This document shows, in pieces, positions 3,394-62,444 of a stretch of 62,461 nt of DNA. The position numbers and the translations under genes are program-made. The stretch is from a virus (Duplodnaviria; Caudoviricetes). The notes under the pieces were generated by a model. The model was given only the letters and a program-made list of their open reading frames with translations, ran no database searches and had not been told where the DNA came from. Numbering within the stretch: the first letter of the stretch is position 1; each line of letters starts with the position of its first letter. The stretch lies in the IMG/VR virus record IMGVR_UViG_3300027719_000005, positions 1 to 62,461 of that record; one strand, written 5' to 3'.

Positions 3394-4137
3394 ATGAAAA
3401 CAGAAAACGTTCAATTTAATTTTTCAGCGGGTATGAATAAGGCCGAGGTAATTATCCGCGAGGTAAGCACCGTTAATGAACTTCCGGTTAAGGCTCCGAT
3501 AAAAACCAACATATTTGGAACAATTGGAGCTCCTTACGCTTTTCTCTCGAAGCGGAAAGATGTTAAAGAGCAAATTGATCAAAATAGGTGCCATATCCTT
3601 GTTGACCGTAATCAAATTAGTATTATACTAATTATCAATGAGGATGAAGAGTACCATAGGGGAACAGTAATCGGAAGTCTTGCGTTTAACCCAAAATTTG
3701 AGGAGTTCAGAATTAATAATGATAAGGTTTGGACTCCTACGCAGCTCGGCATGTTCTTTAAGATGAACAGGGCTTTCTTCCCAGAAAGGGATGTTAATAT
3801 GAAGCTGGTTTCTGACCTTATGAACTTCACAGCCAATGTTAACAACAACATTGAAAGATCGGCAAATGAAAAAGGTGATCGGGTGGATAAGTTTGAGCAA
3901 GTGGTTAACTCCAATCTACCGAAGTCTTTCAACCTTGTAATCCCAATATTCAAGGGTATGCCAGCAGAGAATATTGAGGTTGAGACTTTCGCTCAGGTTA
4001 ACGGCAGGGAAGTTTCATTTGCCCTTATTTCTCCAGGCGCAATGTCAACACAGGAGGAAATACGCAACAGGATTATTGATGAGCAACTTAAATTAATTGC
4101 TGAAATCTGTCCTGAGATAGCAATTATTGAGCAGTAG
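3394..4137 (+). CDS. Conserved hypothetical phage protein (possibly DUF2303/YfdQ-like)
   Basis: 247 aa, LPKSFNLVIPIFKG motif; family assignment tentative. Confidence 0.55.
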   Translation: MKTENVQFNFSAGMNKAEVIIREVSTVNELPVKAPIKTNIFGTIGAPYAFLSKRKDVKEQIDQNRCHILVDRNQISIILIINEDEEYHRGTVIGSLAFNPKFEEFRINNDKVWTPTQLGMFFKMNRAFFPERDVNMKLVSDLMNFTANVNNNIERSANEKGDRVDKFEQVVNSNLPKSFNLVIPIFKGMPAENIEVETFAQVNGREVSFALISPGAMSTQEEIRNRIIDEQLKLIAEICPEIAIIEQ

Positions 4138-4669: not shown

Positions 4670-4876
4670 ATGAAAATTGAAGATATAGAACTAGGCAGAG
4701 AGTATTTAAGAATACATACATATCCTGGTCAATCATCACAGCACTTTAAAGCGATAAAAAAAGAGAAAGATCGCGTCCTATTTATTCAAACATTCCCAAA
4801 GGAATTTCATAAAGGATTTGGACAAACCTATACACTGAATAGAATTGAATGTGAAAGATATATTCATCCACTTTAA
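4670..4876 (+). CDS. Hypothetical protein
   Basis: 68-aa ORF. Confidence 0.55.
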   Translation: MKIEDIELGREYLRIHTYPGQSSQHFKAIKKEKDRVLFIQTFPKEFHKGFGQTYTLNRIECERYIHPL

Positions 4877-4899
4877 TTAATTTTTTACGACAACATTAT

Positions 4900-5319
4900 A
4901 TGAATACAATTAATCGAATATACAGAGTGCCTTACATGAAAGATAAATTTTCGTATGTAGGACTTTTAAGGAACGAAAAACGATTTAACATAAACGACAA
5001 AGTATTTTTCTCAATAAATGGAAGTGAAATTGCTTTTGGTCGCATTGTCGGAGTCGAATTGCCTCCAGTTGACAATCCTGAATACCTGTACAAAATTGAA
5101 TTGCCAGAAGAACTTATAAAGCAAAGAATGGAACATAAAGAGTTTTATGAGGGTAAAGAAATTGATAAAGTAATATTGAATTGTGAATCAATTTTTTCAA
5201 CAGTTCAAGAGGCTAAAGAATCAGCTCTAGCAAACCTCGAAAGAATGGCAAGAATACAGCAAAGAGAAATTGAAAAATACTTTGGTCAATTTTCAGAGTT
5301 GTCTCAAGATAATCGCTAA
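4900..5319 (+). CDS. Hypothetical protein
   Basis: 139-aa ORF. Confidence 0.6.
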   Translation: MNTINRIYRVPYMKDKFSYVGLLRNEKRFNINDKVFFSINGSEIAFGRIVGVELPPVDNPEYLYKIELPEELIKQRMEHKEFYEGKEIDKVILNCESIFSTVQEAKESALANLERMARIQQREIEKYFGQFSELSQDNR

Positions 5320-5479
5320 TAATAAATTATAGACTCAGGAAGGGCTTTGCGGGAAGGAATAACAAACAGAAACCAATGAAAAAACAAATACTAATAGCAG
5401 GAAGTTGCTGTAAAATTTGCAAACATATGGGTTTGCGCAGGGATGCGTCAAGTGAAGTTTAATTTAAAATTTTGGATAT

Positions 5480-5632
5480 ATGAAAGCAGGAGATACTATT
5501 ATTTTAGATGACGTTGCAGTAGTTACGGTTGTTTGGTGCAATGAAACACTGATGCAAGTAGAGTATAAAGATTTAACTAGGAGATTGCTTACAATAGCAA
5601 TGTATGACATAAAAATTTTAAAGTCAACGTAA
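5480..5632 (+). CDS. 50-aa ORF not in the ORF track (MKAGDTIILDD...KILKST)
   Basis: Translated by hand; same flanks and same LKST* end as 6985-7173. Confidence 0.6.
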   Translation: MKAGDTIILDDVAVVTVVWCNETLMQVEYKDLTRRLLTIAMYDIKILKST

Positions 5633-5640
5633 CGCAATTT

Positions 5641-5778
5641 GCCTATAACGTTGGTGGTTGGCGTTCGTTGCCGACCTTAATTTAATAGATAAATTAACTT
5701 AAAAGCAGAAATATTATGAATACCGAAAAAGTATCAAAAAAGCAAAAAGGCAATGACGTTAACCACGTGTTACCTGCT
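5641..5778. repeat. attC-like hairpin H1
   Basis: GCCTATAAC 5641-5649; arm 5654-5672 pairs with 5749-5766; GTTACCTGCT 5769-5778. Confidence 0.8.
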
Positions 5779-6009
5779 GTTTTTGATTCTGTTGAACATG
5801 CCGTAAAAACGCTAAAATTAGACAGAAGGCATAAATGGGAGGAATGGAATGGTGAACTATCTTACCCTTACAAATATTCACACACTTGCACTGGTTGCGA
5901 TGGCGGTGGATGTAATGAGTGTGGGTATCACGGTAATTCAATAACTTATGTACCTGTACCAGCCTTTATGCCTGACGGCTCAATTGTCAAAGTGCGTTCT
6001 TTAAAATAG
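5716..6009 (+). CDS. Cassette ORF, Zn-finger-like (CxxCxGxGCxxC)
   Basis: Starts in the H1 loop; stop overlaps the next AGCAGGTAAC box. Confidence 0.7.
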   Translation: MNTEKVSKKQKGNDVNHVLPAVFDSVEHAVKTLKLDRRHKWEEWNGELSYPYKYSHTCTGCDGGGCNECGYHGNSITYVPVPAFMPDGSIVKVRSLK

Positions 6010-6132
6010 CAGGTAACGGTTGCGTATTGGCTTTGCTGCCAACGGGATTATAATTAATAACCAAACACTTTAAATTATGAAGAAAGCATCTAAAAAGAAT
6101 GAGGGCAATAAAGTTAATACGCTGTTACCTGC
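6008..6132. repeat. attC-like hairpin H2
   Basis: AGCAGGTAAC 6008-6017; arm 6022-6040 pairs with 6104-6122; GTTACCTGC 6124-6132. Confidence 0.82.
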
Positions 6133-6403
6133 TGATGCAGTTAAATTAAAGTTAACCCCTAAGCAGAATGCAGTAATTTTTTGCCTTCAAAATGGATGGG
6201 AATTAATTACTGACATGGAAATGTGCGGGGCAATAGTTGCCAATAACACAATGGAATACAGAATAAATAACGGATTATTCTTTAGATTAATAAACATGGA
6301 TTTGATATATCAGGGAGGTAGTGAAACTAGGCACTCTTTTACTTTAACGCCACTAGGCAAAAAATGTATAACGAAGCAAGTTTCATTCAACATAACAAAG
6401 TAG
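6077..6403 (+). CDS. Cassette ORF, possible winged-helix protein
   Basis: LTPKQ...LINMDLI...FTLTPLG pattern; starts in the H2 loop. Confidence 0.65.
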   Translation: MKKASKKNEGNKVNTLLPADAVKLKLTPKQNAVIFCLQNGWELITDMEMCGAIVANNTMEYRINNGLFFRLINMDLIYQGGSETRHSFTLTPLGKKCITKQVSFNITK

Positions 6404-6408
6404 CATTT

Positions 6409-6614
6409 GCAGGTAACGTAGAATGCAAGTGAAGTTTTTTAACCGACTTAAATACTAAAATTATGAACTTTAGAAAAGAATTAGCCAGAGAATTAAACCT
6501 CGGAGCAATTGCGGAAGAAACAATGCTCCAAGATTATATAATAGCCTGTGAAGCGATTGCGGTTAAATACCACAAAGAACAGGTTAAAAAATTGCATTTG
6601 CATAGTGTTAGCAA
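6409..6614. repeat. attC-like hairpin H3 (long coding loop)
   Basis: GCAGGTAAC 6409-6417; arm 6423-6444 pairs with 6582-6603; GTTAGCAA 6607-6614. Confidence 0.8.
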
Positions 6615-6744
6615 GTGCGTGGATGTCGAGCGAGGGCATTCGGTTTGCTGTACTAAGTGTGGTAAATCGTTAAAACCAATATATATGTGTACTGCCTGTG
6701 TAGATACGGAAATGCAAAATAAGTTAAAGCAAACTGATTGCTAA
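6463..6744 (+). CDS. Cassette ORF with C-terminal Zn ribbon
   Basis: CTKC...CTAC; starts in the H3 loop; TAA stop is part of TTGCTAAC. Confidence 0.65.
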   Translation: MNFRKELARELNLGAIAEETMLQDYIIACEAIAVKYHKEQVKKLHLHSVSKCVDVERGHSVCCTKCGKSLKPIYMCTACVDTEMQNKLKQTDC

Positions 6745-6844
6745 CGCTCGTGGTTGATGCCGTTTGTGCGGCGTACTTCCGCACAAAAGCAAGGCATCTA
6801 AACGCCAGCGAGAGCCGCACGAATGGCATTAACCTTTTGTTATT
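6738..6844. repeat. attC-like hairpin H4 (non-coding loop)
   Basis: TTGCTAAC 6738-6745; arm 6752-6772 pairs with 6814-6834; GTTATT 6839-6844. Confidence 0.8.
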
Positions 6845-6984
6845 GGTTGATTGAGTTACGAGTGAAGAGTAATAACATTGGCGTTTATCCACGAGCGTTA
6901 TAGGCAAATTAGCAGACCGAGAGCAAACGTACTTTGTTTGCGTAGGGATGCGTTAAGTGAAGTTTAATTTAAAACATTTATAGT

Positions 6985-7173
6985 ATGGAAATAACAGGCG
7001 CAATAATAATAGTGCAAATAGATAACGACAAGGCTTATCAAGTCGATATAAGTAGCGATAACGTTAAGGCACTTTTAGCTATGTATCAATATAGTAATGA
7101 CTGCTCTATTAAAATACTTGATAAGCCTTTAATCGGTTTGACTTTAACCAAAAATGTTTTAAAGTCAACGTAA
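6985..7173 (+). CDS. Cassette ORF, hypothetical
   Basis: 62 aa inside the segment GTTATAGGCAAATT (6897-6910)...AATTTGCCTATAAC (7177-7190). Confidence 0.65.
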   Translation: MEITGAIIIVQIDNDKAYQVDISSDNVKALLAMYQYSNDCSIKILDKPLIGLTLTKNVLKST

Positions 7174-7231
7174 TGCAATTTGCCTATAACTATGTTATTA
7201 AAATACTTATTTACTAAATAACTGACTAATA

Positions 7232-7462
7232 ATGAATGATATAATTAGTAAATGGGTGGTTAATTATAAGGATTGGCAGATTGCCATAACAGAGGACGAG
7301 AGAGTATTCTGTCTAAAAAGCAATATTGAATTAGTAGAGTACTGGAACAACGGCACAATTTCCTACAGACTCCCAAACACCTCTAAAAGAATAGGCGTTA
7401 AAACAATGAGGGAGAATTGTCAATTAAAGCAGGTAACTATTGAAAAGTATTGTCCATTTTAA
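7232..7462 (+). CDS. Hypothetical protein
   Basis: 76-aa ORF. Confidence 0.55.
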   Translation: MNDIISKWVVNYKDWQIAITEDERVFCLKSNIELVEYWNNGTISYRLPNTSKRIGVKTMRENCQLKQVTIEKYCPF

Positions 7463-7474
7463 TCAAATTAAACT

Positions 7475-7663
7475 ATGAAAACAAGAGTATTTGAAAGTTA
7501 TGGAATTTATATATCAATTGTTTTTGTAAGAAATTTAGACCGTGAACCAGCATGGAGGTTTGTCATCGAAAATGTTGAAGATGTTTTATTTGAAAGTGGA
7601 AAATATTCTGAATATCCCAAATGTGAATTAGAATCGTTAAAGAAAGCTGTTGAGTTTTTATAA
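7475..7663 (+). CDS. Hypothetical protein
   Basis: 62-aa ORF. Confidence 0.55.
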   Translation: MKTRVFESYGIYISIVFVRNLDREPAWRFVIENVEDVLFESGKYSEYPKCELESLKKAVEFL

Positions 7664-7690
7664 AACATTATAGAATAATAAACTAAAACT

Positions 7691-8107
7691 ATGAAAGCAT
7701 CAGAATTAAGAATTGGGAATAAATTTGAATGCATGGGAATGATTCAAACTGTCTTTGAAATTTGCGATAATACCGATAGAGGCAGAATAAAGCAAGCTGG
7801 ATATGAATATATTATTAGGTGTGAGGAAAACGGCAACCAGTATAAACCTATAGAAATTAAGCCAATACCCATAACAGCAGAATTGTTACTACGATTAGGT
7901 TTTAAAAATGATGATGGTGATTTCGTCTTGGAATATAATAGACAAGCGTTTATGATTTCAAAAGCCCAGGATGAAGATTTATTACTTCTTTATCGAGAAG
8001 ATATAGGGTTTTCCTTTAATGTGTTGAAATTTATTGAGCATATTCACGATTTACAAAATTTATACTATGCGCTGACAGGTGAAGAACTTACTTTAAGCGA
8101 CATATAA
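7691..8107 (+). CDS. Phage protein of the ELRIGN...LQNLYYALTGEEL type; paralogue of 62094-62444
   Basis: Shared N- and C-terminal motifs. Confidence 0.7.
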   Translation: MKASELRIGNKFECMGMIQTVFEICDNTDRGRIKQAGYEYIIRCEENGNQYKPIEIKPIPITAELLLRLGFKNDDGDFVLEYNRQAFMISKAQDEDLLLLYREDIGFSFNVLKFIEHIHDLQNLYYALTGEELTLSDI

Positions 8108-9208: not shown

Positions 9209-11914
9209 TTACCCATTCCATGTAGTTGTTAAATCTGTATCTAGTCTATCCATCTGCATTAGCGTGGGTTTACATCCATGAACTAGCACTGTATATCTGC
9301 ATGATCGCTGTGTTTTGGTAATATGGACATCTACAACAGAGGATTGAATGAACGATTTACCATTGTTCAGGAAGATTAAACCCTCCTCGTTTAGCTGTCC
9401 ATACAGAAGAGTAGTTATCCTTCCATTGTTGCCTGTGATAACCTCTCTTAATACTGCCCTATTGACTTTTTTCTCGTCAGTATTGCCAAATCCACATGGT
9501 CGGCTAATAAGGAGTACTGGTAGGTTAATGCTTTCCTTGCCTAGTTCAACCAGATCAACGCTGTTGTTTCTGCTTATTAAAGCGTAGGTGTTCGGCCAGT
9601 TATTTGCCATCAGGTCGAATGACTCCGATCTCTTGTACCATAAACCAGAGTCGAATCCGAATATATAGGAGTACTGGTAGGTTGGATTGCTAACTATTAA
9701 CTCCTCGTTGATGTAGTCCACCGCAAGGGTGCTACCCTTTAGGTATGTTAAAAAGTCCACCTGGGATAAAGCATCATCATTCCCGAATAGATCAACCATG
9801 AGCGTGTTGAATAGATCGTTATTCACCAGATTATTGCTTACAGGACCGTTAACTGGATTGCTGATTAACTTAAAGGACTCTCCGTACAGGGAGATTATCC
9901 CTTTGTCGGTTGGGAATAGTATTCTCCCATTGTATGAAGTGGCTTTGCCTACCACTACCTCATCAGTTACAGGGATTACTCTTAGAACCATTACTTCGCC
10001 AGTTCCTATCTCCAGCGCAAATACTCCAGTAGTAGTAAATACTATCATGGGGTGCTGACCATATTGGAGCGCGGATAATGGCTTAGAGTTGGATATTAAT
10101 TGCAGGATTGAACCATTCCCCACCCTGTAGGAGTTCTTTGCCTCGAAGTATAGCGGATTATTAACAGCAGATACCTGTATTCGGTTATTGTCGGGAATGG
10201 AGTTAATAAATATATCTGAGGCTATTTCTAGCTCTGTGTACACTGTGGGGTATTTCCATGTCATTTGATTGAACAAATCCCAAGACATCCTCACGTAATC
10301 GGTATGCCTAGTTCTTTCCCCAGAAGTTCTTGTTGTAGAGGTAGGGATTGTTTCATCTATATCGGGCTGATAACCCATTAAAGAAAAGGAGTAGTTGAAA
10401 GAAGGGTGAGGTGTCATATCAGACGAAAAAGCAATGTATGTACTTCCTCCATCCGGCTTTACCAGAATATTAAACTTAACAGCCCTGCTATCTGGATAGT
10501 AAATACAGAAAGGAAGGTTTAAGTGAGTATCGCTATTAGCATAACCATCGCTTCGTAAGTGTATATTACCCACAGAGGTTTTCAGGATAAACTCAAACCA
10601 AACAGTCTTACTAACTCCTCCCGGATATGAAGCGGTATTGTATGATTTTGGTACCGGAGAAAAGTAGTTGATTATGCCTCCCATCCATAGTCGGGAATTA
10701 TAGATAAAAGACGATGATGCATACATTCTGATGTCTGATAACTGCTCTGTAGGCATAGAATCCTTGGTGTGAATGGCCGTAATATCCCCCAAACTTATTG
10801 TTGTGGGCGATACAATATCTAAATCATCTAAAGGAATTGTATGAACCTTGTAGAGCTGCGTGTCTTTAATCATTAGGTCGGGTGTAATGTTTTCATCATC
10901 CTCAATACTCTCGTTTAATTCCCAGGGAGAAACATTTCCACCGTTACTTCGTCCGTAATAATAATCATCTCTTTGGTTATTGTACGATTTGATTCTATGA
11001 TAAACCCTGCTCATATAAATATTTACACCCATTACCAACCCTTTATATTGAGAATTTAACTCCTCTAACACTCCTGAGTTAATACTTGGTATAGAGTACT
11101 GCAATGTGCCGGGATCAAGGGCTACAAATACTTTATCATTGCTACTAAATACGGCTACCTGTACTTCGCTAGAACTATCATACTTATCTGTGATTTGACC
11201 TCGAATGTGCATAATAATAGGCTTGGAGTGACCTACTATAGAGCCATCAAATAGCTCATAGGCGTACCGAATCACCACGTAACCGTTAATCATTCCCTCC
11301 TTCTCCCAGTTATTATAGGCAATATCAAGTACGGTCATTATCTGATCATACCTTTCATCCGATGAGCTATCGTAGTCTATTCTACCAACCGGAACGGCAG
11401 TTGATACTCCATTAGCCATGAGCCAAGAGGCATAATCTTTAAAGTTGTCATACCCTAGGTATGCACTATTAGGCTTGTTGTGAAAGTTAATTTCTAGCGG
11501 TTTGGGTACTGCATCCCCAACGTATCGGTAGTTGTTTATTTCAATATCGTAAAGGATATAGTGCATCTTCTTACTGCTATCGTCAAATACGATGAGAATA
11601 TTCCCTATCGTTTCGAACCTTACCTGCTTACTGGTGCCAAGGGTAAATATATCCACAAGAACACTCCCTTGCTTTTGCTTAATCTTTCCGGTAGGCTCAT
11701 GGTACACCACAATAAAAGAACCTGAGTTTGTATTGTGAACACACATAGCCTCAATTCCGCTTCCAATGGTGAACTGGTTGGTTTTGCCCTTCACGTTCTG
11801 CCACTTCCCATTCTTGTACCGCGCGTTAATCAACTCTTGGCACTCTATCATCTCGGCCTTATTGGTTAGGCTACTCCTGTTTATCCCCTTTAGGGTTGAC
11901 TCTACTGTTGCCAT
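9209..11914 (-). CDS. Tail tubular B / P22 gp10-like virion stabilisation protein
   Basis: 901 aa, beta-rich; IQVSAVNNPLYF...QYGQHPMIVFTTTGVFAL motif; next to the ejection genes. Confidence 0.7.
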   Translation of the reverse strand: MATVESTLKGINRSSLTNKAEMIECQELINARYKNGKWQNVKGKTNQFTIGSGIEAMCVHNTNSGSFIVVYHEPTGKIKQKQGSVLVDIFTLGTSKQVRFETIGNILIVFDDSSKKMHYILYDIEINNYRYVGDAVPKPLEINFHNKPNSAYLGYDNFKDYASWLMANGVSTAVPVGRIDYDSSSDERYDQIMTVLDIAYNNWEKEGMINGYVVIRYAYELFDGSIVGHSKPIIMHIRGQITDKYDSSSEVQVAVFSSNDKVFVALDPGTLQYSIPSINSGVLEELNSQYKGLVMGVNIYMSRVYHRIKSYNNQRDDYYYGRSNGGNVSPWELNESIEDDENITPDLMIKDTQLYKVHTIPLDDLDIVSPTTISLGDITAIHTKDSMPTEQLSDIRMYASSSFIYNSRLWMGGIINYFSPVPKSYNTASYPGGVSKTVWFEFILKTSVGNIHLRSDGYANSDTHLNLPFCIYYPDSRAVKFNILVKPDGGSTYIAFSSDMTPHPSFNYSFSLMGYQPDIDETIPTSTTRTSGERTRHTDYVRMSWDLFNQMTWKYPTVYTELEIASDIFINSIPDNNRIQVSAVNNPLYFEAKNSYRVGNGSILQLISNSKPLSALQYGQHPMIVFTTTGVFALEIGTGEVMVLRVIPVTDEVVVGKATSYNGRILFPTDKGIISLYGESFKLISNPVNGPVSNNLVNNDLFNTLMVDLFGNDDALSQVDFLTYLKGSTLAVDYINEELIVSNPTYQYSYIFGFDSGLWYKRSESFDLMANNWPNTYALISRNNSVDLVELGKESINLPVLLISRPCGFGNTDEKKVNRAVLREVITGNNGRITTLLYGQLNEEGLIFLNNGKSFIQSSVVDVHITKTQRSCRYTVLVHGCKPTLMQMDRLDTDLTTTWNG

Positions 11915-14456: not shown

Positions 14457-17400
14457 ATGTCCACTGAAAATACAATAGCCAAAATACTTGCTGAACGTAA
14501 TAGCAAAACTCCTGTTAATACAAATGTTGATGATATTGATAAGGGCTACGAGGAATGGAAAGCCCAAAACAATCCATCAAAAGCACCCGAAAAACAGGAG
14601 GATATTACCACCCTAAACAGTGAAATATCCTCACTGAGCAATAGAGTAAAGGAGTATGATGCTATTGATAGTGGCAAAAATAACAGTAGGGCTACAACTA
14701 CAGGGATGTATTCAGGGGGTATGAGCGTTCTGGATGCAGTAAAACCGCTAAAAGAAACCAACGATAAGTACACCGAACTAAGCAAAACTATCGTACAGGA
14801 TAGGGAGCGTTTGGCAGAGCTAAGCAAGAAAAGAGACGCTATAATTAGCGGCTCCGTTGATCCAATAATACAGCAGGTAAAATCGAAAAAAACGGAAATA
14901 TCCGATCAACTAGAAAGATCATACTCTGATTTAGAGAATACGCTTAATGAGGAGTATGACACAGCCGATCCGTTGAAAGCCTTGGAGTACGAGAAGAAAA
15001 GGCAGGAAACCACAAGGCTGATTGAAAGGAAGCAAGCCTTAACTCTATCTGAGGACTATCTTGTCAGAATGAAAGATTTGGCTAATGTTTCTCCAGATAA
15101 ATACATACAGGCACTAGGACAAGGATTTGCAAACCATGACTGGGTAGATATTGCCACTCTAGGGTTAAAGTCAATGGAGGATAACTTCAATCTTGCCAGT
15201 ATTTCAAAAAAAATTATGGCCGGAACCGCCACAGAGGAGGAGAAGGTTGCCTTAACTCTGTACAGCCAATTTAACCAGTTAGCCGCAACCAAGGATAAAC
15301 CTGTTACCTACGATATTGCACAGTCATTCATCCAATCTCTACCCTATATGGCTGATATTGCCATATCTGGAGGGGTTAGGGGAGCGATTACAAAGGGTAT
15401 TACAAAGGGAATTGGAAGAACGGTAGTTAACCTGTCCGATAATGTAGCAGGGATTGTTGCCAATAAAACGGCTCAAAAAGCGGTTAAAGGAACAATAAAG
15501 AATACTGCTAAAATAGCCACTCAGGCCACAGGGGCAATTGCTTCTTCTCCATTGCAGATGAATATGTACAATAACTTTTCCGAAAATAGACTAGCAAACT
15601 ATGTTATTGACTACGACAATGCCGGAGAAGTAATGGTGAGAGAGGCCAAGGATTCTGAAAATGTAGCAGAATCTATGATTAGAGCTATGGCATTAACAGC
15701 ATCCGCAACATTCTCCGAGAGTAGCGGTGTAATTTTCGATGATGCCTTTTCTGCCATTGGGAAAAAGTTCTCTCTGAATAAGCTTAACCCCCATTTTCAA
15801 AACAGCCTTAGTCGAGGTTTTGGTGCAGTAAAGAAAGCCACCAGTTTAAACCAAACATTCGGGGAGGTTGGTGAGGAGTACATTAATAAATTTACGGACA
15901 TTCTAGTTACAAACCCACGAGAAGAGGATGCCAATCAGGATGAGTGGGCCAATTTCTTCAACACAAGGGAAGGATTAACGATACTTGGATCAACCTTGAT
16001 TACTCAAGGAATGTTCAAGGCGCAATACGCTCCACACTTGGTTGACTTAGCAAAGACAAAATCCATCGTTAAGGAGAATGAAACCCTATTGCCGGAAGAA
16101 ATAAGGGCTAAGATAGTTCAGGCCATGAGTGCAAAAACGGCCAACGAGCAAGTTGATGGACTGGTGAACCTAAAATTAGGGAGCATTGAGAACCCTGAGG
16201 AGCGCAGAAGTGTTGTTAACTACATCAAGAGCAAAATTGAGTATGATTTTGTAAAAGGAGTAGCGCAGGGCGATCAGGAAATATACCGGATTAGAAAGGT
16301 AGATGATAGCGTGGCCTCCATTGCTCATAAAGAATCAGGCAAGGTTGTTATTGTTACCGAAACAAACCAGCAAGACCCCAACAACGAGGCTTATGTTATA
16401 GCAGGGAACATTGAAGGGGAGAAAACCGACCTTGTTACCATTATTACCAGCGAGGGTGAAAAGAAGATGGTATCCATAGCCAATCTTAGCATAACAAATA
16501 CGGTTGATGTAAAAGAGCTAAGGGATAACCTGGTAATTGCCGAACTCTCGAAGTTAGAACAGGAAACAGCCCAAGAGGAAGGGATTGAAAAAGCGGAATC
16601 TTTAGGGATCAATGCAGAGGAAGTACCCAGTATTGGGGAGGAGTTACCATTGCCCGATGGAAGTACCATTAAAATAGTATCCGTTGATACCAATGGGGTA
16701 TCATTTGATGTGCTTGACGCGGAGGGAATACCCGCCATGACCAAAAGCCTCAGCTTTGAGGAGTACTCTCAGATGGTTCAACCTACCGCAGAGAATCAAC
16801 CAGTCGAGGGTGGACAACCTGTAATATCCGAGCAGGACACTGAACAAGCACCTATTAGCGAAACCCCTAAAACCATCAAGACCTTAACCGACGGTAAGCA
16901 TAATTTAAGCGTTGCTTTGGATGAGAATAACGAGGGTATTTCTCAGGAGGTATATGATAACCTTCCCGATGCGGAGAAGGTGGTTAATTCCTTGTCGAAA
17001 CGATTCTCCAAGTTGGAGTTTAACATAGTGGACCAATCGGGCGATGATGTATTCTCCCCTGATGCCTATGTTATTTCCGTTAAACCAAGATCAGTTAAAA
17101 GTGTAATTAATCAGCAAGCCAATGAAACCATTGAAAGTGCTATCACCCCAGAAGAAAGCATCACTCCTGAGGCAGTCGTTGATCAAGTTAGCGAACAAGC
17201 AGAAGAAGGACAAATTAAAGAAGTAACCAATGAGCAAGACATACAAGGACAACAAGCATATCCCGAAATTGAGAACCAGGAACAAGTTAAGGGTGAAGAA
17301 ATACGACAGGAAGAAGGACAAAAACCTATCGGAGTAGATGAATTAAATAACACCCAAGCAGAAGAGTTAATCCCTGTTGATGATTCCTCCATAGGTAAAC

Positions 17401-20400
17401 TTAACGAGGAAGAAATAGCCCTTGTTCAGAGCAAACTTGATGATCCTGACGAACCACAGGATCAGAAGGAATACTGGGTAGAGGATATTGAAAAGTTAAA
17501 GACCAACCCTAAAAAGTACTGGAGTGAGTTTTTGGTACAGAAAGGAAATACTGCAAGGGAGGATCAAATTCTATCTATTCAGGACTATTACAACAACAAG
17601 CCTATTATTCAAGACCTAGACGCTCACGTTTCGGAGATTGACAAGAAAGCAGAGATTCAGTCCGAGGAGAAGAAAGTTAATATTGAACCTACTGAGGCGC
17701 AGAAAGAGGCAGGAAACTACAAGAAAGGCCATGTGACTATTGGTGGTTTTGATATTACCATTGAGAACCCTAAAGGATCGTTCCGAAAAGGAAAAGATCG
17801 TAGCGGGAAGGAGTGGAAAGTAAAGATGAACAACACCTACGGTTACTTTAAGCGAACCAAAGGGAAGGATGGGGAGCAAATAGATGTATTCCTTGGGGAA
17901 AATCCAGAGACAGGCAGAATATTCGTGGTGGATCAACTGGGAAAATCTGGAAAACTAACCTTATTTGATGAGCATAAGGTTATGATGGGCTTTAAATCCG
18001 AGAAGGAAGCCAAGGAAGCCTATAAATCTAACTACTCAAAGGACTGGGATGGGTTTGGAGCAATTACCGAAATGTCTAGGGAAGAATTTAAGGCGTGGAT
18101 TGGTGATGGTACCCGAACTAAAAACCCTGTAGAGTGGAAACAGAAACAGAAGAAGTCTAACCCTAACGCTTTTCTACCTAAACAGGCCATTGAATTGCTT
18201 AAATCTGATCCAAACAGTATTGATGAGGCCATTATTCAGCATATACTAAACGGAGGTAAGTTTAGCCGGAACGACTATATACGCCATTCAGGGTTTATGG
18301 ATGGCAGTAAGGAGCTTAACACCGCATCGTTTAACGGCCTGATAAACGGAAAAGATCAGGAGGAGGGGATGCAGTTTGATACATTCCTTGGTACACTAGG
18401 GAATGATTTTGGCATGAACGATGGCATTGATTTAACCAACGCTATTGTTGATGTGCTGAAACTTTCCACCAGAGCCAACCTAGCGAGACGATTAATTGAG
18501 GCATCGGGTACCAGTCAGGATAATCACCCACACCTAAACGATGATTACGCTCAAGGATTAGCGGAACAGGAGGAGGCATTGCGTTTAGCGGAGGATGAGT
18601 TAATGAACGAAGTAGCCGTACTTTTTTACTCAAATTATCCTCAAATAACTAACCAAGAATATGCAGAATTATTTAACTTTGGAGAAAATGAATACAATGA
18701 GCAACGAAATGAACCAACAGCCGAAGGAGACATTCGAACAGTTCAAGGAGAGACTGGAGAAGATGGTGGAGTCGATAATGCAGGAGACAGGCAAGACGAA
18801 ACTGGAAGTGTACCGGGAATTGAAGTGGATGGGCGAACAGAAGGCGAAGGAAGTGCAGAAGTAAACCCCCAAAACCAAGTTCCCGAAGTCGGGAATATGG
18901 TAGAATCACAAGAAGTTGATCGTGTTCCTGATACAAAGGAAACGATAGAAACTACAAAAAAAACATTTTTATTCATGTCCGATAGCCCTATGCACCAAGC
19001 AAGGGCTTTAGGTGTGTTAACTAGAAACACAAAGGTAGATGGCGTAGTAATGCCAATTTACCAATGGATTGAAGGATTACCAAGCGGATTAGGGGTAGGA
19101 AAACAAAAGATTTATACCAAAAACGCTAAATCTGACGATGGATCAGTAGAAAAATTAGTCTTAGGAAATTATATTGTAGGTTCAAAAGCAGAACAAGATT
19201 ACTATAACTATATTCAAACTGGGGGTGTTTCTTACACTCAATTCCTTGCAGACAAGAAAGTGCAGGATGAAATCATTGCAGAGAAAAAAAGAATTGAGAA
19301 AGAGGCGCAGGATAAGATATTTGAAGATAAGCGCAGAAATGATAATGAGGCATACAAAAAAGCTAAGGAAGATCAAATAAAAGAACTTATCGAGAAAGGA
19401 AAACAGCCAACAATTGATAAGTTTACCGAATCATTTAAGAATAAAATAAAACAACTTCAATCTAAGCCTCAAACAAGTGCGGTAAAAGAAGAAATAGCCT
19501 ACAATAACAGAATGATAGAGCAAACTATCAGTCAGGTTGAAAGCAGTTACGATATTGCAACAACCATGTATGAAGTTATTGAAGGAGAAGTTAAGCCAAA
19601 ATATACTTTCAGTATAGGGGATAAGGTATTGTTCCCTGCAACAATTGACCACAAACAAACTCTTATTGAAACTGTCATTGAGTCAAGCAGATCGGATAAT
19701 AACGATAAGATTATTTTTAAGGTAGCGAAAAAAGAAGGCATAGTAAATCCATACAGTTCATACGATGGATTGAGACCTGTTATAGATAACGACCAGTCGA
19801 GTCCAGAAAATAAAAACCCTGAGAACGTTTCTAATGTCGATGCAATCAAATCTGTAATATCCTTACAGGACGAGCAGGAAACTACCATTAGTAGGCTTAA
19901 ATCTATTGCGGCTCAACCACAGAAAACCGCCAAGGATAATCAGGACAAGACACAACTAGAATACAAATTAGGACAGATTGAGGAAAAACTTAACAAGGCT
20001 CAAGCCTTAGTTAATATTCCTGCCGAAAAATTACCCGCAGTTACTAAGTTAGTACGACAAGCATTGGCCGAAGAGAAAGCCATTGATGCTAGGATTGAGT
20101 CGTTAAACTCCCAGAAAAAGAACAAGGAGAAGGAATTTAATACCCGCAATGGTGTATTTGGGGATAATAAGGAGATTGCCGACAAAGCAAAAGGGCAACA
20201 ATCCCTATTTGCTGGAGATATATTTGAGGCCAGCACTAACACTTTAGCCAATACCATTAAGCCTATTAACGACAGTATAGCCAAACTGGAGGAGGAGAAA
20301 CAGCGCAATGCTAAAATCCTTACCGATAAGGTTGAACTGGAGTTACAGGGAGCGCAACAGGAGATTAAGGAGGAGGTTAAAGCGGAACCAAAAGGAGACC

Positions 20401-23400
20401 TATTTCTAAAGGCAAGTGAAATTATTGAAACAAGCCCAAAAGGCAGGGTATTGTCAGATATTAATGAATTAATACACACTGCAAAGAACATACAACAATT
20501 AAAACAACTATTAGAACTTCCTTATATAAAACAAACATTCGGGTTGGTTCAAGAAGTTAATAGTGCAATTAACTATCTTGAAAGACATCCTGAAAAGCAA
20601 GAGCAACAGGTTAATCAAAGCGAAAAAGGCGATTTTGACTTTGAGGCTCTTTTTGAAGAAACGCCATCAAATGAAGTCAATGGGAAACAAGAACCGGACA
20701 ACTACGAAGATTGGTATCAAAATAGCAGTTTTTCTAAGAAATGGGCCGCAACTAGAGCTGAGGCTATAGAGAAGGTAAAACAAACCTACATTAATGCTTT
20801 ACGGACAAAGAATGAATGGGAGAGTAAGGATTATAAAAATCACGGAGGAAGCGTAGAGGTTGGTAAAAATAAAGATGATTTCGATGGAGGAAATGTAGGC
20901 ATTGACTATATCAACAATAAGCGAAAAAAAGATGCGATTAGTAATGCAATATCGGATACAGAACAGGCTATTACCGATTTGAAAAGTTTAAAACTGTCAC
21001 AATCGGAGATAGATAATTTTATTTCAAGCATAAGCAAAGCAGAACAGCCAAAAGTTAAGCCCGAATTTGCAGGGAGTGTTCTTGAAACGGAGAGTAAAAC
21101 AGAAAACAAAACCTACTCTATACCAGAAACATTCAACCTATCAACATTCTCCAAATTTAGCACAGAGTTAAGCAATGGTAATGTTCAGGTAGATGATTTT
21201 AAGAAAGCCTTTAACGTACTAATTGAGAGTAAGGCTTCAATTATTGAGGAGTTATCCAAGAAAACAAAAGCGGAGTTACTAGCCAACATGAACAGCATGG
21301 GGCAGTATCGCTACAAGAACGAAAATAAGGACTCTATAGTTAAGGCTTTATTCAGCGATATGCTGATGACGTTTTCTTTTGGTAGTATTTCCTACAATAT
21401 GGGCGAAACCATAGAACAGGCTATAACTAAAAAAGTTGACGCTACTACACAGGAGCAAATTAACGACTATGTGGACGAGACCAAGAAGCGTAGGGAGGAG
21501 TATTTGGAGCGTGTTAAAGCCCACAAGAAAGCACTATCAAACCCAGAAACGCTTGAGGAGTTTAAGGTATTCATTAAGTATAACGGAATTGAGAAACTAT
21601 CTCCAGAGCAAAAGGCTACCTACGATGATTTAGTTACCGACAAGGTACTTGAAAATAGAAGTGACGATGCTAAAAAAGGAGCGATAGTAGAGAAGGTAGA
21701 TTTAGGTGACACAGAAATGTCTATTGCTGAAACTAAGCACACCAAAACTGGCATACCTTTATTTGTTGTTCGTTTATCTGCAAGAATACCTGAGGAACAG
21801 TACAAGGAGTTGAATAAAAAGGCAAAACAACTTGGAGGTTACTACTCATCATACGCAAAAGATGGAGCGATACCGGGTTTTCAATTCAAAACTTTAGAAC
21901 AAGCCCAGGCGTTTAGTGGACTTAAAACTCAGGATGCCTCAAATATTGATATAAAAGAGGAGGTAAAGGAGCAAAAAGTAGAGCAGAAAATCTCCAAACT
22001 AAGGGAGAACGCTCAAAAGATTATAGAGAGGGTTGACTCTGAGTTAAACAGAGACAGGCTAACTAATACTGCAAAGAGAGCAAGAGAAGCCGCTTCTACA
22101 GAGGCTAGGTTGAACGAGGAGAAGCGTATTGCTCAAACCATGCTTAACATTGCCGATGCAATAGAGAATGGAGATGTAAAACTACTCGATGGCATTAAGG
22201 CAAAAACTCACATAGAACTACTGGATAACCTTATTAAATCAGCAAAATACGCTGAAATAAGTAGCAAGGCTGAAAGTTATTCTGATAGACAGAAGTATGA
22301 AGGAGAACCCGCGACACTTGAGACTATTGAATACCTGAAAAATGGATTCTACCCAAGCATTTACGGAACAACGCTGAAAGATGTAATTAACAAGGTTGAG
22401 AACAAGCCCGGATTAAAACAACTTGCGACTAAATGGAGTAAGAAGTTATCTGGACTAGGAGAATACGACAGTTACCAAGTAACAAATGATACAGATATAT
22501 CCGAAATAGAGCAACTATTCAACGGGTTATCAGAGAGCGATAAGAAGTACAACCGTATAGGCACAGTATTAGCCGACTTTAACAGGCTAAAGACAATGGG
22601 TATTGAAAACGACTCCATGCTACGTGCCGCACTTAGGGAGTACATTCAGTTCCGTGGCAAAAAACAGGCTCCTGACAAAGTTAAGGAGTTAGAACGAGCC
22701 ATTGTTGGCCGTGCAAAGAATTTGGGTGTTGACTTCTTTCCGACTCCAGCAGAGACCGCTAAGATGATGGTTGAACTAGCAGGGGTTACTGAGGATATGG
22801 AAATACTTGAGCCAAGCGCAGGGAACGGCAATATAGCAGACCAAATTAAGCAAGTAGGTGTAATGCCTGATGTTATAGAAATATCCTCAGAATTATCCGA
22901 AATACTCAAGGCTAAAGGCTACGATGTAGTGGCAGATGATTTTATGGAGTACACTGAAAAGAAGTACGATAGAATCATAATGAATCCTCCTTTCTCAAAT
23001 GGAATGGATGGAGACCATGTAAAACACGCCTACGAAATACTTAAACCGGGAGGGAAACTTGTTGCTATTGTTGGAGAGGGAACATTTATTAGGAACGATA
23101 AAAAAGCCACAGCATTTAGGGAGTGGCTTGAAGAGGTTGGAGGCAATGAGACTAAACTAGAAAGCGGAACATTCCAAGATAAAACCTTGCTTAATACCAC
23201 TGGAGCAAACGCTAGAATTGTTGTTATCGAGAAAGAAGGTGAATTTATTGATGATACACCAGATGAAACTGTAGATAAACAGGAAGTAGTTAACGAGAAT
23301 GTTTCTCAGGATAAAAAAGAGGTTGAACAAGAACAGTTAGAGGCAGTAGAGCCTATAAATGATATTCAGGACTTTGGGGAGAAGGTAGGAGGAGCCAGAA

Positions 23401-26400
23401 AAGATATGGGTATAACCCGAACCGCAAGGGAAAAGGACTCTATGCCAGCATGGAGAAGAAAGTATGAGTATGCAAACCCTAATGGAACGGTAATGCTAAT
23501 TGGTAAAGTGGACACCTCTAAGCCTTTTATTGTGAACTTCTTTGAGGAAGTAAAAGGCATGATGGGTAAACACAGCCGACAAATTATAGTAAGCGAAGTA
23601 AAGGATGGGTATATTACAAGGAATCCAATGATTTTTAGCTCAGAGGAGGAGGCAGAAAATTACATACCTATATACGAAGTTCACAGACAAGGTTATAAAA
23701 TAAACCAAAAGGGCGATGAATTTGTAATTTACAAACGTGCTTCTACAGGTAAAGCCCTTGAGTTTGATAAATTTCCAACCATTGAGGACGCACAGGCTTA
23801 CATAAACTCCACAGAGGGAGCAACATCTCTTCTTAACAGGAAAAGGGAGTCGTTTAGTATTCCAAGCCTTGAAAGAGTACAACGAACCGGAAAGGACTAC
23901 AGGCAAGGTAAGAACATTTCTACCGATGAGTTTTATAATACATTTGGATTTAGAGGTGGAGAGTTTGGAAAGTGGGTAAAACCAGAGGAGCGACAAGCCC
24001 TTTTAAACATTGCCTACGACTCTTTAATGGATATGGCGAACTTACTAAACCTTCCTCCAAAAGCATTGTCTCTAAACGGTGAACTTTCAATCGCATTTGG
24101 AGCAAGAGGGATTGGTGGACTAGAGGGAGGCGTAAAAGCACACTACGAAGGTAATAGGGCTGTAATAAACATGACCAGACTAAACGGAGCAGGAAGTTTA
24201 GCCCATGAATGGATGCATGCCCTTGATAACTACTTTGGATTGCAGGATGCTAAACAAGATTACTCCAGGGATGATAAAGGCGAACTGATTAGTAAGGATT
24301 ACTTCTTCTCAGAGGTAAAAACCTACAAGGCTGGAATGAGACCAGAACTTAAAAAGGCACTGGAGGAAATTTTGGACAACCTAGTTAAGAAAACCGTTAC
24401 TAGAGATATAGCCCAAGATGCTAAACAAAAACTCTACGATGGGTTTGAAAGGAGTATTTTAGGAGAAGCAGACCGTTTAAAGGCAAAACTGAATAATGGG
24501 GTGCGAACTTATAAATACAACAGAAAGACCAAACAAAGAGAGGAAGTTGTAGTAAAAGCAACCGCAGAGCAACTAGAGAAGGCCAATGCCTTAATAGATA
24601 AAATCACATCAGGCAACTCTGAAAAGCCTAAATGGCAATCCATAACCGCTAATTCTTTTGGTGATTACTCGTATATCAGCGATGATATTAGAGCTCTTGA
24701 CGAGATATATAAATCAGTGTTTGGGGGAACCGGTTTAAAGAGAAACGGCAACGGATATTATAACTTTGGCTATTACGCTGAAAAGTTATACCACATCAAG
24801 GAAGAACTAGAGAAAGCGAAAAACGGAGAGCAGGAAACAGTAAAAATTAAAACGGATTTACTGGATAGCTCCTCACGATTTGACGCATCAAGAGTTAGCC
24901 CTTACTATAGTAAGCCAATTGAAATGCTTGCGAGAGCCTTTGAGCAGTATATGGTAACTAAACTTGGAACAGAAAAGAGCGACTATTTACAGTACGATAA
25001 AAGCCCAGTTTACAAGGCTCTTTACGATATTACTCCATACCCAGAGGGAGAAGAGTTAGAGACATTAAACAAAGCCTTTGACAACCTATTTAGCGCAATT
25101 AAAACCGAGGAGAGGGAGGATGGCAATGTGGTGATGTTTAAAGCCAACAACCCAACCTTTTACCCCAATGCAGAGAAATCCTTAGAGTCATTAAGCGATA
25201 ACAACAGAACACCCGAACAATGGAGAGCCGAACTGCTAAAGAACGGAGCCAAGGAATCTGAGTTAAACTACATGGGATGGAGCCAATTTGTAGAGGGTAA
25301 GAGAACCTTGACAAAAAATGACTTGACAGAATTTGTCAACTCGAATAAGGTGGAGGTGCAAGAGGTTGTAAAACAAACAGAACCTCTTCAAGTAACAAAA
25401 AATGATGCTTTAAAAGCAGAATTGGTTGATGATATGTGGTATGTTGATTTCGGACAAACAACAGTACCTATTAGAAAATTCTCAGCCGAAACAAAAGAAG
25501 AAGCAATTGAACAAGCGGTAGAAGAGTATAATGAAAATATTGGGGAATATAATACAAATGGAAACACCAAATTCGCCCAGTACTCCACCCCCGGAGGCAA
25601 GAACTACAGGGAGGTGTTGCTGACTTTGCCTAGTTTTAAATTACCTCCTAAAGCAGACGATAAATTAAGACTAGAATTGCTATTTGAAAAAAGAAAACGA
25701 ATTACAGAGAGTGAAAATCCAGACCAAGAACAACTAAGAATAATTAATGATAAAATAGAAATTATTTCTAATAGAATTGATGAGTCAAAAGATTTTCGAA
25801 GTTCCCACTTCAACGAACCCAACATAGCCGCCCACGTAAGACTAAGCGAATTTACCGACAAGCAAGGTAGAAGAGTACTGTTAGTAGACGAGGTGCAGAG
25901 TGATTGGGCGCAGAAAGGGAAAAAAGAAGGATTTAAGGTTCCTGCTGAATTTAACGAAGAAGAATTTAAGGATTGGTATGAAAGAGTCAAAACTGACCAA
26001 GAACCAAACTATTCCGACCTGCAAAACGACAATAAGTTTTATAATTACGCCAAGCAAGTATTTCTTGATGAGAAACAGGAGCGCATAGATAGAGATGCTG
26101 TTCCCGATATGCCATTCAAGAAAACCGACCAGTGGGTAGGCTTAGGAATGAAGTGGGCGATACAGTATGCCGCCAAGAATGGTTTTGATGGCGTGGCTTG
26201 GACTACTGGAGAGCAACAGGCCGAGAGGTATGATTTGAGTAAACAGGTGGACAGCATAGCAACAAAGAAAGAAAGGAATGGACTTTATACTATTTTGGGA
26301 AACAAAAATGGCAAACATGTATTTACTCAAATTGATATTCCAGAAAATAAACTTGAAGGAATTATAGGGAAAGACCTTGCCAAAAAAATTATTGATTATC

Positions 26401-61984: not shown

Positions 61985-62050
61985 ACATTGGGTAATGAAT
62001 GATTTCTCACAGTCATTCAAGAAGAGGAGGTTCGATTCCTCCTCCGGCCG
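61979..62050 (+). ncRNA. tRNA-like element with perfect T-arm and no D-arm
   Basis: Acceptor GGCTGAA/TCCGGCC-G; stem TGAATGA/TCATTCA; T-arm GGAGG-TTCGATT-CCTCC. Confidence 0.55.
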
Positions 62051-62093
62051 CAAGGAAACAACCTCACTTTGTTTAAATCAAACACTAAAAGTT

Positions 62094-62444
62094 ATGGAAG
62101 CTCAAGAATTAAGAATTGGAAATGTAGTGAATTACAGAGGAAAACAAATTGTTATCACTGCAATAAACGAAAAGGAGATATACTATAAGTATGGTTTTGC
62201 TTCAATAGAAGATCATAGCCCAATTCAACTAACGGCAGTATGGATTGACAAGTCTGGAGTGAATTACCTGAACGGTATTCATAACGACAATTTTAGCGGA
62301 ATTATCACTGTACGCTATAACACCTTTGTAAAAAGGTATGAGGTGTTAATGGGTACCATCTCGATTAGGTTTATTGATTATGTACACCAGTTACAGAATA
62401 TCTTTTATGAGTTAACTGGAGAAACCTTAAACATTAAACTTTAG
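62094..62444 (+). CDS. Phage protein of the ELRIGN...LQN..LTGE type; paralogue of 7691-8107
   Basis: True start is probably MEAQELRIGN at 62094; its 3' end is duplicated at 1-110. Confidence 0.7.
   Translation: MEAQELRIGNVVNYRGKQIVITAINEKEIYYKYGFASIEDHSPIQLTAVWIDKSGVNYLNGIHNDNFSGIITVRYNTFVKRYEVLMGTISIRFIDYVHQLQNIFYELTGETLNIKL

Follow-up and report, generated by a model that had tools for sequence, protein, structure and literature searches.

A row of hairpins with coding loops in a Bacteroidota-type phage resembles an integron-like cassette array of reversed polarity

We analysed the virus record IMGVR_UViG_3300027719_000005 (Caudoviricetes), a complete viral record of 62,461 bp with terminal repeats, here referred to as a whole as the window, and focused on a row of imperfect hairpins with TAACG...TGTTA feet at positions 5431-7440. 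The reading that we favour, with a confidence somewhat above even, is that this row is an integron-like cassette array of reversed polarity, in which the hairpins double as portable translation-start modules. An original prediction, made from the letters alone, had described open reading frames (ORFs) at 5716, 6077 and 6463 that start inside hairpin loops and are translated through recombination-like sites. As a description this holds, since the sites do look like recombination sites and are read by the ORFs. Their identity as attC, the recombination site of integron cassettes, does not follow, given that no integron integrase (IntI) was found and that the one family member assayed in print, P12002L_attC1, failed with IntI1.

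Three of the hairpins, H1 to H3, share a common build on the plus strand, namely an outer box, TAACG, a bulge of 3-4 nt, a stem of 17-22 bp with a one-base bulge, the loop, the returning stem, TGTTA and a second outer box (Table 1). With RNA parameters, H1 (5636-5783) folds at -32.6 kcal/mol (z -2.58; 3 of 200 shuffles as good), H2 (6003-6140) at -43.8 kcal/mol (z -5.55; 0 of 200) and H3 (6395-6640) at -58.5 kcal/mol (z -2.95; 1 of 200). When TAAC...GTTA-anchored duplexes were scored over the whole 62-kb genome, the four in 5646-6900 (-32.4, -42.6, -30.1 and -38.9 kcal/mol) were among the six strongest, only two others on the plus strand reaching -30 kcal/mol. Moreover, 5 of the 11 GC(N0-3)TAACG motifs in the genome fall in 5641-7055. 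The left arm of H1 also has an alternative self-fold at 5656-5676, an 8-bp terminator-like stem followed by TTAATTTAAT, so that the arm may switch between pairing locally and over long range.

Coordinates and folds bear out the predicted placement of the three ORFs. The A-rich leader and ATG of ORF5716 lie in the H1 loop (5673-5748), those of ORF6077 in the H2 loop, and those of ORF6463 in the H3 loop together with about 40 codons, so that about half of this 93-aa ORF (about 49 codons) is indeed encoded inside H3. Each ORF crosses the right arm and GTTA (6124-6127 in H2, 6607-6610 in H3) and stops beside or within the next foot, also as predicted: the stop of ORF5716 (TAG, 6007-6009) abuts GCAGGTAAC (6009-6017), that of ORF6077 (TAG, 6401-6403) abuts GCATTTGCAGGTAAC, and that of ORF6463 (TAA, 6742-6744) is the TAA of the TAAC foot of the next hairpin, H4. 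The body of ORF5716 is flanked by GTTA-CCTGCTGTTTT and AAAATAGCAGG-TAAC. The foot is read as GTG-TTA-CCT in H1, CTG-TTA-CCT in H2 and AGT-GTT-AGC in H3, which are the two frames (xxG-TTA and GTT-AGC) that the original prediction had reported.

Homologues of the ORF5716 body were found at five viral loci (loci are numbered L003 and so on), and a scan for the translated-box pattern gave 54 stretches, mostly chance, from which the true modules (L049, L035/L066, L065, L032/L059 and the L004 contig) were picked by eye. In an alignment of 8 H1-type hairpins from 6 contigs (A2), the consensus has 22 pairs, and both-sided, compensatory changes occur in 15 of them. In total, 94.0% of the cells are paired, against 72.9% (sd 2.3) in shuffles and 27.5-44.8% in slid controls, and none of 500 shuffles reaches the observed value on any of five measures. 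These comparisons indicate that the hairpins are under selection. They already contradict the view that there is no functional element and that the inverted repeats are chance or leftovers of duplicated paralogous gene starts. For that view speak the paralogy of the H1 and H2 right arms (repeat D1, in which H2 and the coding arm of H1 are 75% identical over 52 nt; the H2 arms form inverted repeat I20) and the only moderate fold z-scores of H1 and H3; but with the covariation, the directional wobble and bulge statistics below and the recurrence of the same build in at least 8 unrelated contigs and a cultured Polaribacter phage, we regard it as scarcely credible.

Strand and arm asymmetry was counted in 19 hairpins from six records, all with TAAC/GTTA feet, which were curated by eye and whose arms were aligned by a strand-symmetric method. 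Of the stem pairs, 326 are Watson-Crick, 67 are wobbles of the coding-strand type (52 of them have G on the 5' arm) and 14 are wobbles of the opposite-strand type (p = 1.9e-9), and extra bases number 49 on the 5' arm versus 8 on the 3' arm (p = 2.7e-8). The weakness of these statistics is their dependence on eye curation, as automatic scans at loose thresholds have a high background (29 matches versus 11-17 in shuffles for an energy-based hairpin scan, 55 versus 66 for an alignment-based one). The coding strand of H1-H4 folds 6-9 kcal/mol better than its complement.

Such counts lead directly to the main rival of the cassette array, namely that the hairpins are mRNA elements only. They would then be stem-loops of the 5' untranslated region or between the cistrons of a polycistronic early transcript, with the A-rich start kept single-stranded in a closed loop, and might couple the start to termination of the ORF upstream or make the message more stable; ordinary recombination at conserved junctions, whether homologous or illegitimate, would account for the mosaicism, as for the promoter-early stem-loops (PeSLs) discussed below. 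Coding-strand wobbles dominate both the stems (67 versus 14) and the long-range pairing of outer boxes (20 versus 1), every curated hairpin is co-oriented with the genes, upstream stops lie 0-16 nt from the foot or within it, and starts are found either inside the loop or 12-40 nt past the foot. In classical attC (aadA7, Vibrio) the stems are nearly pure Watson-Crick, no recombinase is common to the records, and the phage carries RecT and NinG/Rap. All this fits the mRNA explanation, which we nevertheless hold to be rather unlikely in view of the box and junction evidence that follows.

The two ends of an integron cassette carry outer boxes that are complementary to each other. In the hairpin row, each gene body is bracketed by two 12-nt boxes, x' behind GTTA and x ahead of the following TAAC, which are complementary at a mean of 7.25 of 12 positions (n=16), while all 360 combinations give 4.16 of 12 (permutation p < 5e-5) and the two flanks of one hairpin match at just 3.9 of 12. 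As at attC, the box at the cassette start pairs with the box at the cassette end and not with its own hairpin partner. When the boxes of 19 bodies are aligned with gaps allowed, 191 pairs are Watson-Crick, 20 are coding-strand wobbles and 1 is of the opposite type; in 18 of the 19 bodies there is a G.U pair, mostly about 7 bases from the core (GTTA-N6-GT ... AT-N6-TAAC). The boxes also co-vary among relatives of the ORF5716 body, with CCTGCTG/CAGCAGG in the window and L003 and CCCACCG/TGGTGGG in L004 and L032. By analogy, boxes matched across bodies are the pattern of integron cassettes, and an RNA role does not predict that they should match across genes rather than across hairpins.

Two models had been proposed for the unit: (a) a hairpin with its downstream body, as a self-contained cassette inverted relative to canonical ones, and (b) a body with its downstream hairpin, so that shuffling would build chimeric proteins. 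When the linkage of N-termini and bodies was compared, hairpin-to-downstream-body turned out to be the default, yet the pairing of N-terminus and body also varies. In all four DNA contexts of the ORF5716 body (the window, L003, L004 and L032), a homologous hairpin stands in front, and the hairpin behind is different and non-homologous in each; the homology to L003 and L004 stops directly after the next TAACGG. A second body, "E" (in L004, L035 and L065), behaves in the same way downstream, and in L065 the left half of its hairpin is replaced. Among the protein homologues of ORF5716, 19 of 21 keep the hairpin-encoded N-terminal motif (V/L)LPxVF, and the preceding 15-20 residues are hypervariable. 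The metagenome evidence consists of assembled contigs; one contig of run X4 joins a D2-type box (Table 1) straight to the TAAC of H4 and therefore lacks exactly 5650-6745, that is, three hairpin-plus-body units. Together with the TAACG...TGTTA signature taken up below, these results make model (a), including its inverted polarity, the better-supported default. The argument that the difference in reading frame across GTTA favours it is weaker than had been claimed, because each hairpin type simply keeps its own frame.

The re-pairing expected from model (b) also occurs at GTTA, although it is not the default linkage. From TAACG to GTGTTA, H1 of the window and its counterpart in L087 are identical at 116 of 126 positions (92%), yet L087 has an upstream gene, two outer boxes and a body that are unrelated to those of the window (24 of 51 positions behind GTTA); this L087 body has matched boxes and the same frame as in the window. 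Between the window and L003, 48 of 51 positions agree in the body behind GTTA and only 75 of 122 in the hairpin. Protein P0021 carries the window's N-terminus on another body, and an H3-type hairpin in L086 holds a different ORF with 18 shared residues around the right arm, in the same frame. In 3 other metagenome runs, contig pieces have their ends at 5652, 5772, 6745/6746 and 6897/6900 and are mostly hairpin modules, and the H1 piece 5652-5772 was found in contigs of other metagenomes. These alignments indicate that hairpin and body are discrete modules bounded by the two feet, with a default linkage of hairpin to downstream body. Against an mRNA role alone, the junctions fall on a core of 4-6 nt with one side unrelated, a homology too short for homologous recombination.

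Three further gene boundaries were noted. In L065 (1440-1520), the left arm, leader and ATG are swapped for a short hairpin (TTTGGTG...CACCAAG), and the only in-frame start within the loop is a TTG. In an X3 contig, only 18 other letters separate the box that follows H1 (window position 5776) from the one that precedes H2 (6005), which leaves a "body-less" unit between two hairpins. In L006/L007 (2715-3375), from another lineage of phages, there are no hairpins, and the junction AAATAACATGGCACAAC is repeated at three consecutive gene starts (MAQQ or MAQP), a different kind of conserved gene boundary; the ORF5716 homologue there has an unrelated zinc-ribbon-like N-terminus.

As for the translation start, the distance from ATG to box in nine H1-type modules is 51, 45, 48, 48, 75, 57, 69, 54 and 51 nt, in all cases a multiple of 3, and indels among relatives are in frame. 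Residues L19, P20, V22 and F23 are each at least 90% conserved among 22 proteins. In the ORF5716 and ORF6077 families, the conserved domain starts just 3-6 residues after the box, with no ATG in the interval, and a homologue of the ORF6077 body in L008, which has no hairpin, begins at residue 24. Because the frame is kept and no other ATG precedes the domains, the loop ATG is likely the start. Bacteroidota translation is not known to depend on Shine-Dalgarno pairing, and gene starts in the window have A-rich leaders and no GGAGG. The D-type loops described next likewise hold a leader and ATG. Since bodies of the H1-H3 type lack a start of their own, the hairpin is best read, at the confidence given above for the whole reading, as a portable translation-start and N-terminal module.

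The row contains further modules (Table 1). H4 is non-coding and branched, is 89% identical over 214 nt to a counterpart in L086, with which it gives a consensus fold of 62 pairs, and has no match in Rfam. In the first D-type unit, the D3/D2 hairpin arms (I8, 5452-5473 / 5612-5633) are 82% complementary, and inverted repeat I2 pairs 5636-5657 with 6889-6910 (22 nt, 91%). In the second, the arms are I5 (6962-6984 / 7147-7169) and the x'/x match is 13 of 14. H4 pieces running from 6745/6746 to 6787/6834/6897/6900 reach a summed contig depth of up to 186 in run X3 and 308 in X4, compared with 2-4 for ordinary pieces of the region, and the D2/H1-left module (5608-5684) reaches 34-68 in wastewater metagenomes of other studies. 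The H4 and D2/H1-left modules behave as abundant multi-copy elements in wastewater metagenomes. That a non-coding, branched H4 is abundant alone in other metagenomes is a further difficulty for a purely mRNA role.

Table 1. Features of the hairpin row in the window
Feature	Positions	Strand	Details
Repeat D3 copy 1	5431-5469	+	left arm and leader of hairpin enclosing all of ORF 5480-5632; 95% identical to 6936-6974
ORF, 50 aa	5480-5632	+	wholly in D3/D2 hairpin loop; final codons (ILKST*) form the right arm
Repeat D2 copy 1	5608-5649	+	D-type right arm, outer box x_D (AATTTGCCTA) and TAAC foot of H1; 90% identical to 7149-7190
H1 hairpin module	5646-5772	+	TAACG 5646-5650, bulge 5651-5653, left arm 5654-5672, right arm 5749-5766, TGTTA 5768-5772
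ORF, 97 aa	5716-6009	+	residues 1-19 hairpin-encoded; body is a CxxC...CxxC small protein
H2 hairpin	6007-6134	+	foot and outer box 6007-6018, bulge GTT 6019-6021, left arm 6022-6040, right arm 6104-6122, foot and box 6123-6134; ATG 6077 in loop
ORF, 108 aa	6077-6403	+	residues 1-17 hairpin-encoded
H3 hairpin	6403-6618	+	outer box GCATTTGC 6403-6410, AGG bulge, TAACG 6414-6418, left arm 6423-6444, right arm 6582-6603, TGTTA 6606-6610, GCAAGTGC 6611-6618; inverted repeat I4; ATG 6463 in loop
ORF, 93 aa	6463-6744	+	~49/93 codons inside H3
H4, non-coding branched hairpin	6738-6908	+	TAACG 6742-6746, CGTTA 6896-6900, outer box x'_D TAGGCAAATT; -38.9 kcal/mol
Second D-type unit	6936-7190	+	D3 copy 2 6936-6974, ORF 6985-7173 (62 aa) in loop, D2 copy 2 7149-7190 ending in GCCTATAAC
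Orphan left-type box AAAGCAGGTAAC	7420-7438	+	in 3' end of ORF 7232-7462; no partner hairpin behind; I19, complementary to 5769-5786

The abundance of single modules raises another explanation, in which the hairpins would be non-autonomous mobile elements of the MITE (miniature inverted-repeat transposable element) or REPIN (repetitive extragenic palindromic doublet forming a hairpin) type, inserted between genes and mobilised in trans, with the coding of the loops secondary, as for the in-frame palindromic elements of Rickettsia taken up below. The inner modules of H1 and H4 do occur alone, bounded exactly by the feet and, at depths of up to 186 and 308, far above the ordinary 2-4; H1 stands in a wholly different context in L087 at 92% identity, and H4 recurs at 89% identity in L086. 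On the other hand, copies within the genome are not near-identical (H1-H4 differ in sequence, and the stems differ and co-vary), no target-site duplication was seen, the bodies too behave as discrete units with matched ends, and a Y1 transposase was found in just 1 of 5 records. We consider this origin improbable.

Predicted clusters of attC lacking integrases (CALINs) have been described in phages (Qi, Rajabal, Ghaly, Tetu and Gillings 2023, Front Microbiol, PMC9892861). As in the window, they are rows of small genes, often near DNA methyltransferases, with imperfect hairpins with TAAC/GTTA feet in between. The primer P12002L_attC1 in Table S3 of that paper corresponds to a hairpin at 29974-30077 of NC_028924, Polaribacter phage P12002L, which HattCI called an attC (PMC9892861) and which belongs to the hairpin family of the window. 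P12002L has more hairpins of this build between methyltransferase genes, on the gene-sense strand; in one example this strand folds at -40.9 kcal/mol and the complement at -22.8 kcal/mol. The available text of Qi et al. (2023) treats the sites as non-coding spacers and has no mention of starts or coding in loops, reversed polarity, matched boxes or separate exchange of hairpin and body (PMC9892861). Translation starts inside integron sites are known, as for ORF-11 at attI1 and for short ORFs in attC that relieve the stem-loop barrier (PMC8876359); unlike these short coupling peptides, full-length proteins would start in the loops of the window and cross the arm and core. We found no report of cassette proteins starting in the hairpin loop in full-text searches, only part of which concerned attC and a single one translation initiation there.

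The polarity was read from the feet. The forward primers of Qi et al. represent bottom strands, as verified with aadA7, and 4 of 7 bottom strands (aadA7, PH101_attC1, PH101_attC2 and P12002L_attC1) read TAACG...TGTTA, as does the coding strand in the window. For comparison, the spacers of a classical Vibrio array (MK672802) were read directly, the automatic scan of this control at threshold 20 having found nothing; on its coding strand, 10 left and 13 right feet follow the pattern TAACA...CGTTA. The gene polarity of the hairpin row is therefore reversed with respect to classical cassettes. With classical attC the hairpins share a folded single-strand site, AAC/GTT cores, stems of variable sequence and conserved structure, and stops in or beside the foot (PMC8876359). 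Unlike in classical integrons, there is no IntI in the window array and no attI, and the hairpin lies upstream of its gene; loops in the window family reach about 190 nt and may hold a whole ORF, and the outer boxes are long.

It may be asked whether the hairpins are simply genuine attC sites of a CALIN, used in the classical way by a host integron integrase. The cassette would then be a body with its downstream hairpin, as in model (b), and crossover at G|TT of the right foot would donate a start and N-terminus to the next cassette. The AAC/GTT feet, the imperfect hairpins of variable sequence and conserved structure, the cassette-type box signature and the observed re-pairing at GTTA agree with this, as do the surplus bases of the coding strand's 5' arm, where the aadA7 top strand also has them, and the HattCI call of one family member (Qi et al. 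2023). However, the same body has homologous hairpins ahead of it and four non-homologous ones behind it in four phages, the "empty site" contig agrees with an insertion at the left foot, and the bottom-strand signature TAACG...TGTTA lies on the coding strand. There is no IntI in this genome, P12002L_attC1 failed with IntI1, and IntegronFinder 2.0 reports a single complete integron in Bacteroidetes (PMC9024848). We regard genuine attC sites in classical use as a poor explanation of the row, about as improbable as the MITE-type one.

Returning to the cassette array of reversed polarity, several results weigh against it as well. In the experiments of Qi et al., P12002L_attC1 was the one of six phage sites without IntI1 recombinants, the five others having recombined (PMC9892861, section 3.4), and in the working sites TJE1 and PH101 it is the 3' arm of the bottom strand that has extra bases, in the window family the 5' arm. 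As noted above, the hairpins were found to share the bottom-strand signature. Extrahelical bases of attC reportedly follow rules described by Bouvier and MacDonald; the extra bases here are on the 5' arm of the strand with the bottom signature, while in aadA7 the 3' arm bears the extra T and G. About 16% of the stem pairs in the window family are G.U, unlike the nearly pure Watson-Crick stems of aadA7 and Vibrio, and this share, the strict gene co-orientation and the placement at cistron junctions are as expected of mRNA structure. Unlike in classical integron recombination, exchange is seen at both feet. As for an enzyme, the best match to the integron integrase model TIGR02249 in this genome scored 28.5 bits, below the cut-off of 265, with none of 5 records above the cut-off and no matches in the records of L003, L004 and L005; PF00589 matched only the record of L049 among five (L003, L004, L049, L032 and P12002L), which leaves no shared recombinase; and Y1_Tnp matched only the record of L004 (1 of 5 records). 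The window has its own integrase gene, separated from the array by about 16 kb when counted across the terminal repeat. Neither excised circles nor junction reads turned up, assembled contigs being the only data.

Other candidates were rejected. NinG/Rap is present in 3 of the 5 records and annotated in P12002L, and is hence not universal as a common factor; for IS200/IS605-type, Xer/dif-type, shufflon or inverton systems, neither a matching enzyme nor matching site features were found, and no gene for an Xer-like recombinase lies next to the array. The record of L004 (G002), a 93-kb phage with a hairpin array, has matches to an IS200-type Y1 transposase at 34883-35245, 62197-62376 and 64753-65115.

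Two known systems resemble parts of the picture. Rickettsia palindromic elements, reportedly inserted in frame in protein-coding genes (Ogata et al., 2000), are said to be palindromic, hairpin-forming and translated within proteins, as here; they are also said to be dispersed repeats inside existing genes, without start codons, cassette bounds or matched boxes. For the shuffling, the nearest functional analogue is the PeSL cassettes of T4-type phages (Arbiol et al. 2010, PMC2839356), in which small repeated stem-loops border non-essential ORFs in plastic phage regions and modules are shuffled at the motifs. PeSLs carry a sequence-conserved promoter and terminator, are thought to recombine by homology and, in the available text, have no protein starts, whereas the window hairpins vary in sequence and their junctions fall on a core of 4-6 nt. 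In 5300-7600, a sigma-70-type scan, which omits Bacteroidota promoter types, found 14 promoter-like sites versus 9.0 +/- 3.5, and terminator-like sites numbered 4 versus 1.3 +/- 1.3, neither of which is significant. One 10/12 sigma-70-like match (TTGGCT-16-TATAAT) at 6027-6054 (+) spans the left arm and loop of H2, in a scan that overall was not above shuffles and did not model Bacteroidota promoters.

The genome has structural genes (portal, terminase and tail genes), genes for replication and recombination (RecT, SSB, a DnaC-like loader, NinG/Rap and a DNA methyltransferase), an integrase gene on the minus strand (50892-52079) and a gene for a repressor-like protein. The nearest named relatives of the portal are temperate Bacteroides phages (about 34% identity), and the window is a temperate Bacteroidota-type phage. 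The hairpin row sits in a run of small plus-strand ORFs at positions 4.1-9.1 kb, with replication and methylase genes on one side and structural genes on the other; we take 5431-7440 to lie in the accessory (nin-like) region of the phage. Relatives reached through the neighbouring gene at 3394-4137 (L009-L014) are without such hairpins, and the array is therefore not lineage-wide.

Searches beyond these loci gave little. Neither 4800-7800 nor H4 had a blastn match in 50,697 phage records, and 11 loci from a viral scan with an H4 17-mer were all chance matches. Rfam 15, which has no attC model, gave 0 matches at gathering thresholds over the whole window, another point against known mRNA elements, and at E <= 5 on 5300-7600 only MIR4208 and BSR0709, at chance level. 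A scan of genome contigs for the ORF5716 family gave a single weak match in a Pseudobacteriovorax metagenome-assembled genome and named no host. Elsewhere in the window, one ORF of 5,574 aa at 14457-31181 (+) takes up 27% of the 62-kb genome, between two unknown genes and the portal; ARAGORN called a tRNA-Arg(CCT) at 9671-9747 (+), inside and antisense to a 901-aa ORF (9209-11914), which may be a false call or an overlapping gene; and two paralogues of PHROG 10066 (unknown function), at 7691-8107 and 61995-62444, flank the terminal repeat region.

On the reading that we favour, the array consists of two alternating kinds of modules, the hairpin (TAACG, a bulge of 3-5 nt, a stem of 17-20 bp, loop, stem, TGTTA) and the body (x', gene body, stop, x), with x' and x as matched inverted boxes of about 10-15 nt. 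The best-folding strand is the coding strand, and since it reads like an attC bottom strand, each hairpin precedes the gene that it serves. The loops of H1-H3 and of the two D-type units would have come to provide the 5' leader, the ATG and the first codons, with translation beginning at the loop ATG. Modules may change places through strand exchange of the folded strand at its TAA|C and G|TTA feet: at the left foot this would move a hairpin with its gene, and at the right foot, more rarely, it would re-pair leader and body in frame. The enzyme would not be IntI and would probably come from the host or from other phages.

More broadly, we put forward tentatively, and with less confidence than the reading of this array, that Bacteroidota phages, and perhaps their hosts, possess an IntI-less integron-like shuffling, in which hairpins carry the leader, the start and an N-terminus of 15-45 residues in a fixed frame and exchange at the feet moves genes or builds new in-frame combinations of leader and body. 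Integron recombination sites are classically non-coding and lie behind promoterless genes; here an attC-like folded site stands in front of the gene, is read by the ORF and would supply the start signal. Were the hairpins to act in mRNA only, they would be unrecognised, widespread structured intercistronic elements that current predictors mistake for attC. If the sites recombine, they would explain how small accessory, probably anti-defence, genes are traded among Bacteroidota phages without an integrase, widen the substrate rules for folded-DNA recombination and provide a natural system for in-frame modular protein assembly. If true, the proposed shuffling would be a DNA-level analogue of exon shuffling for the small accessory proteins of phages.

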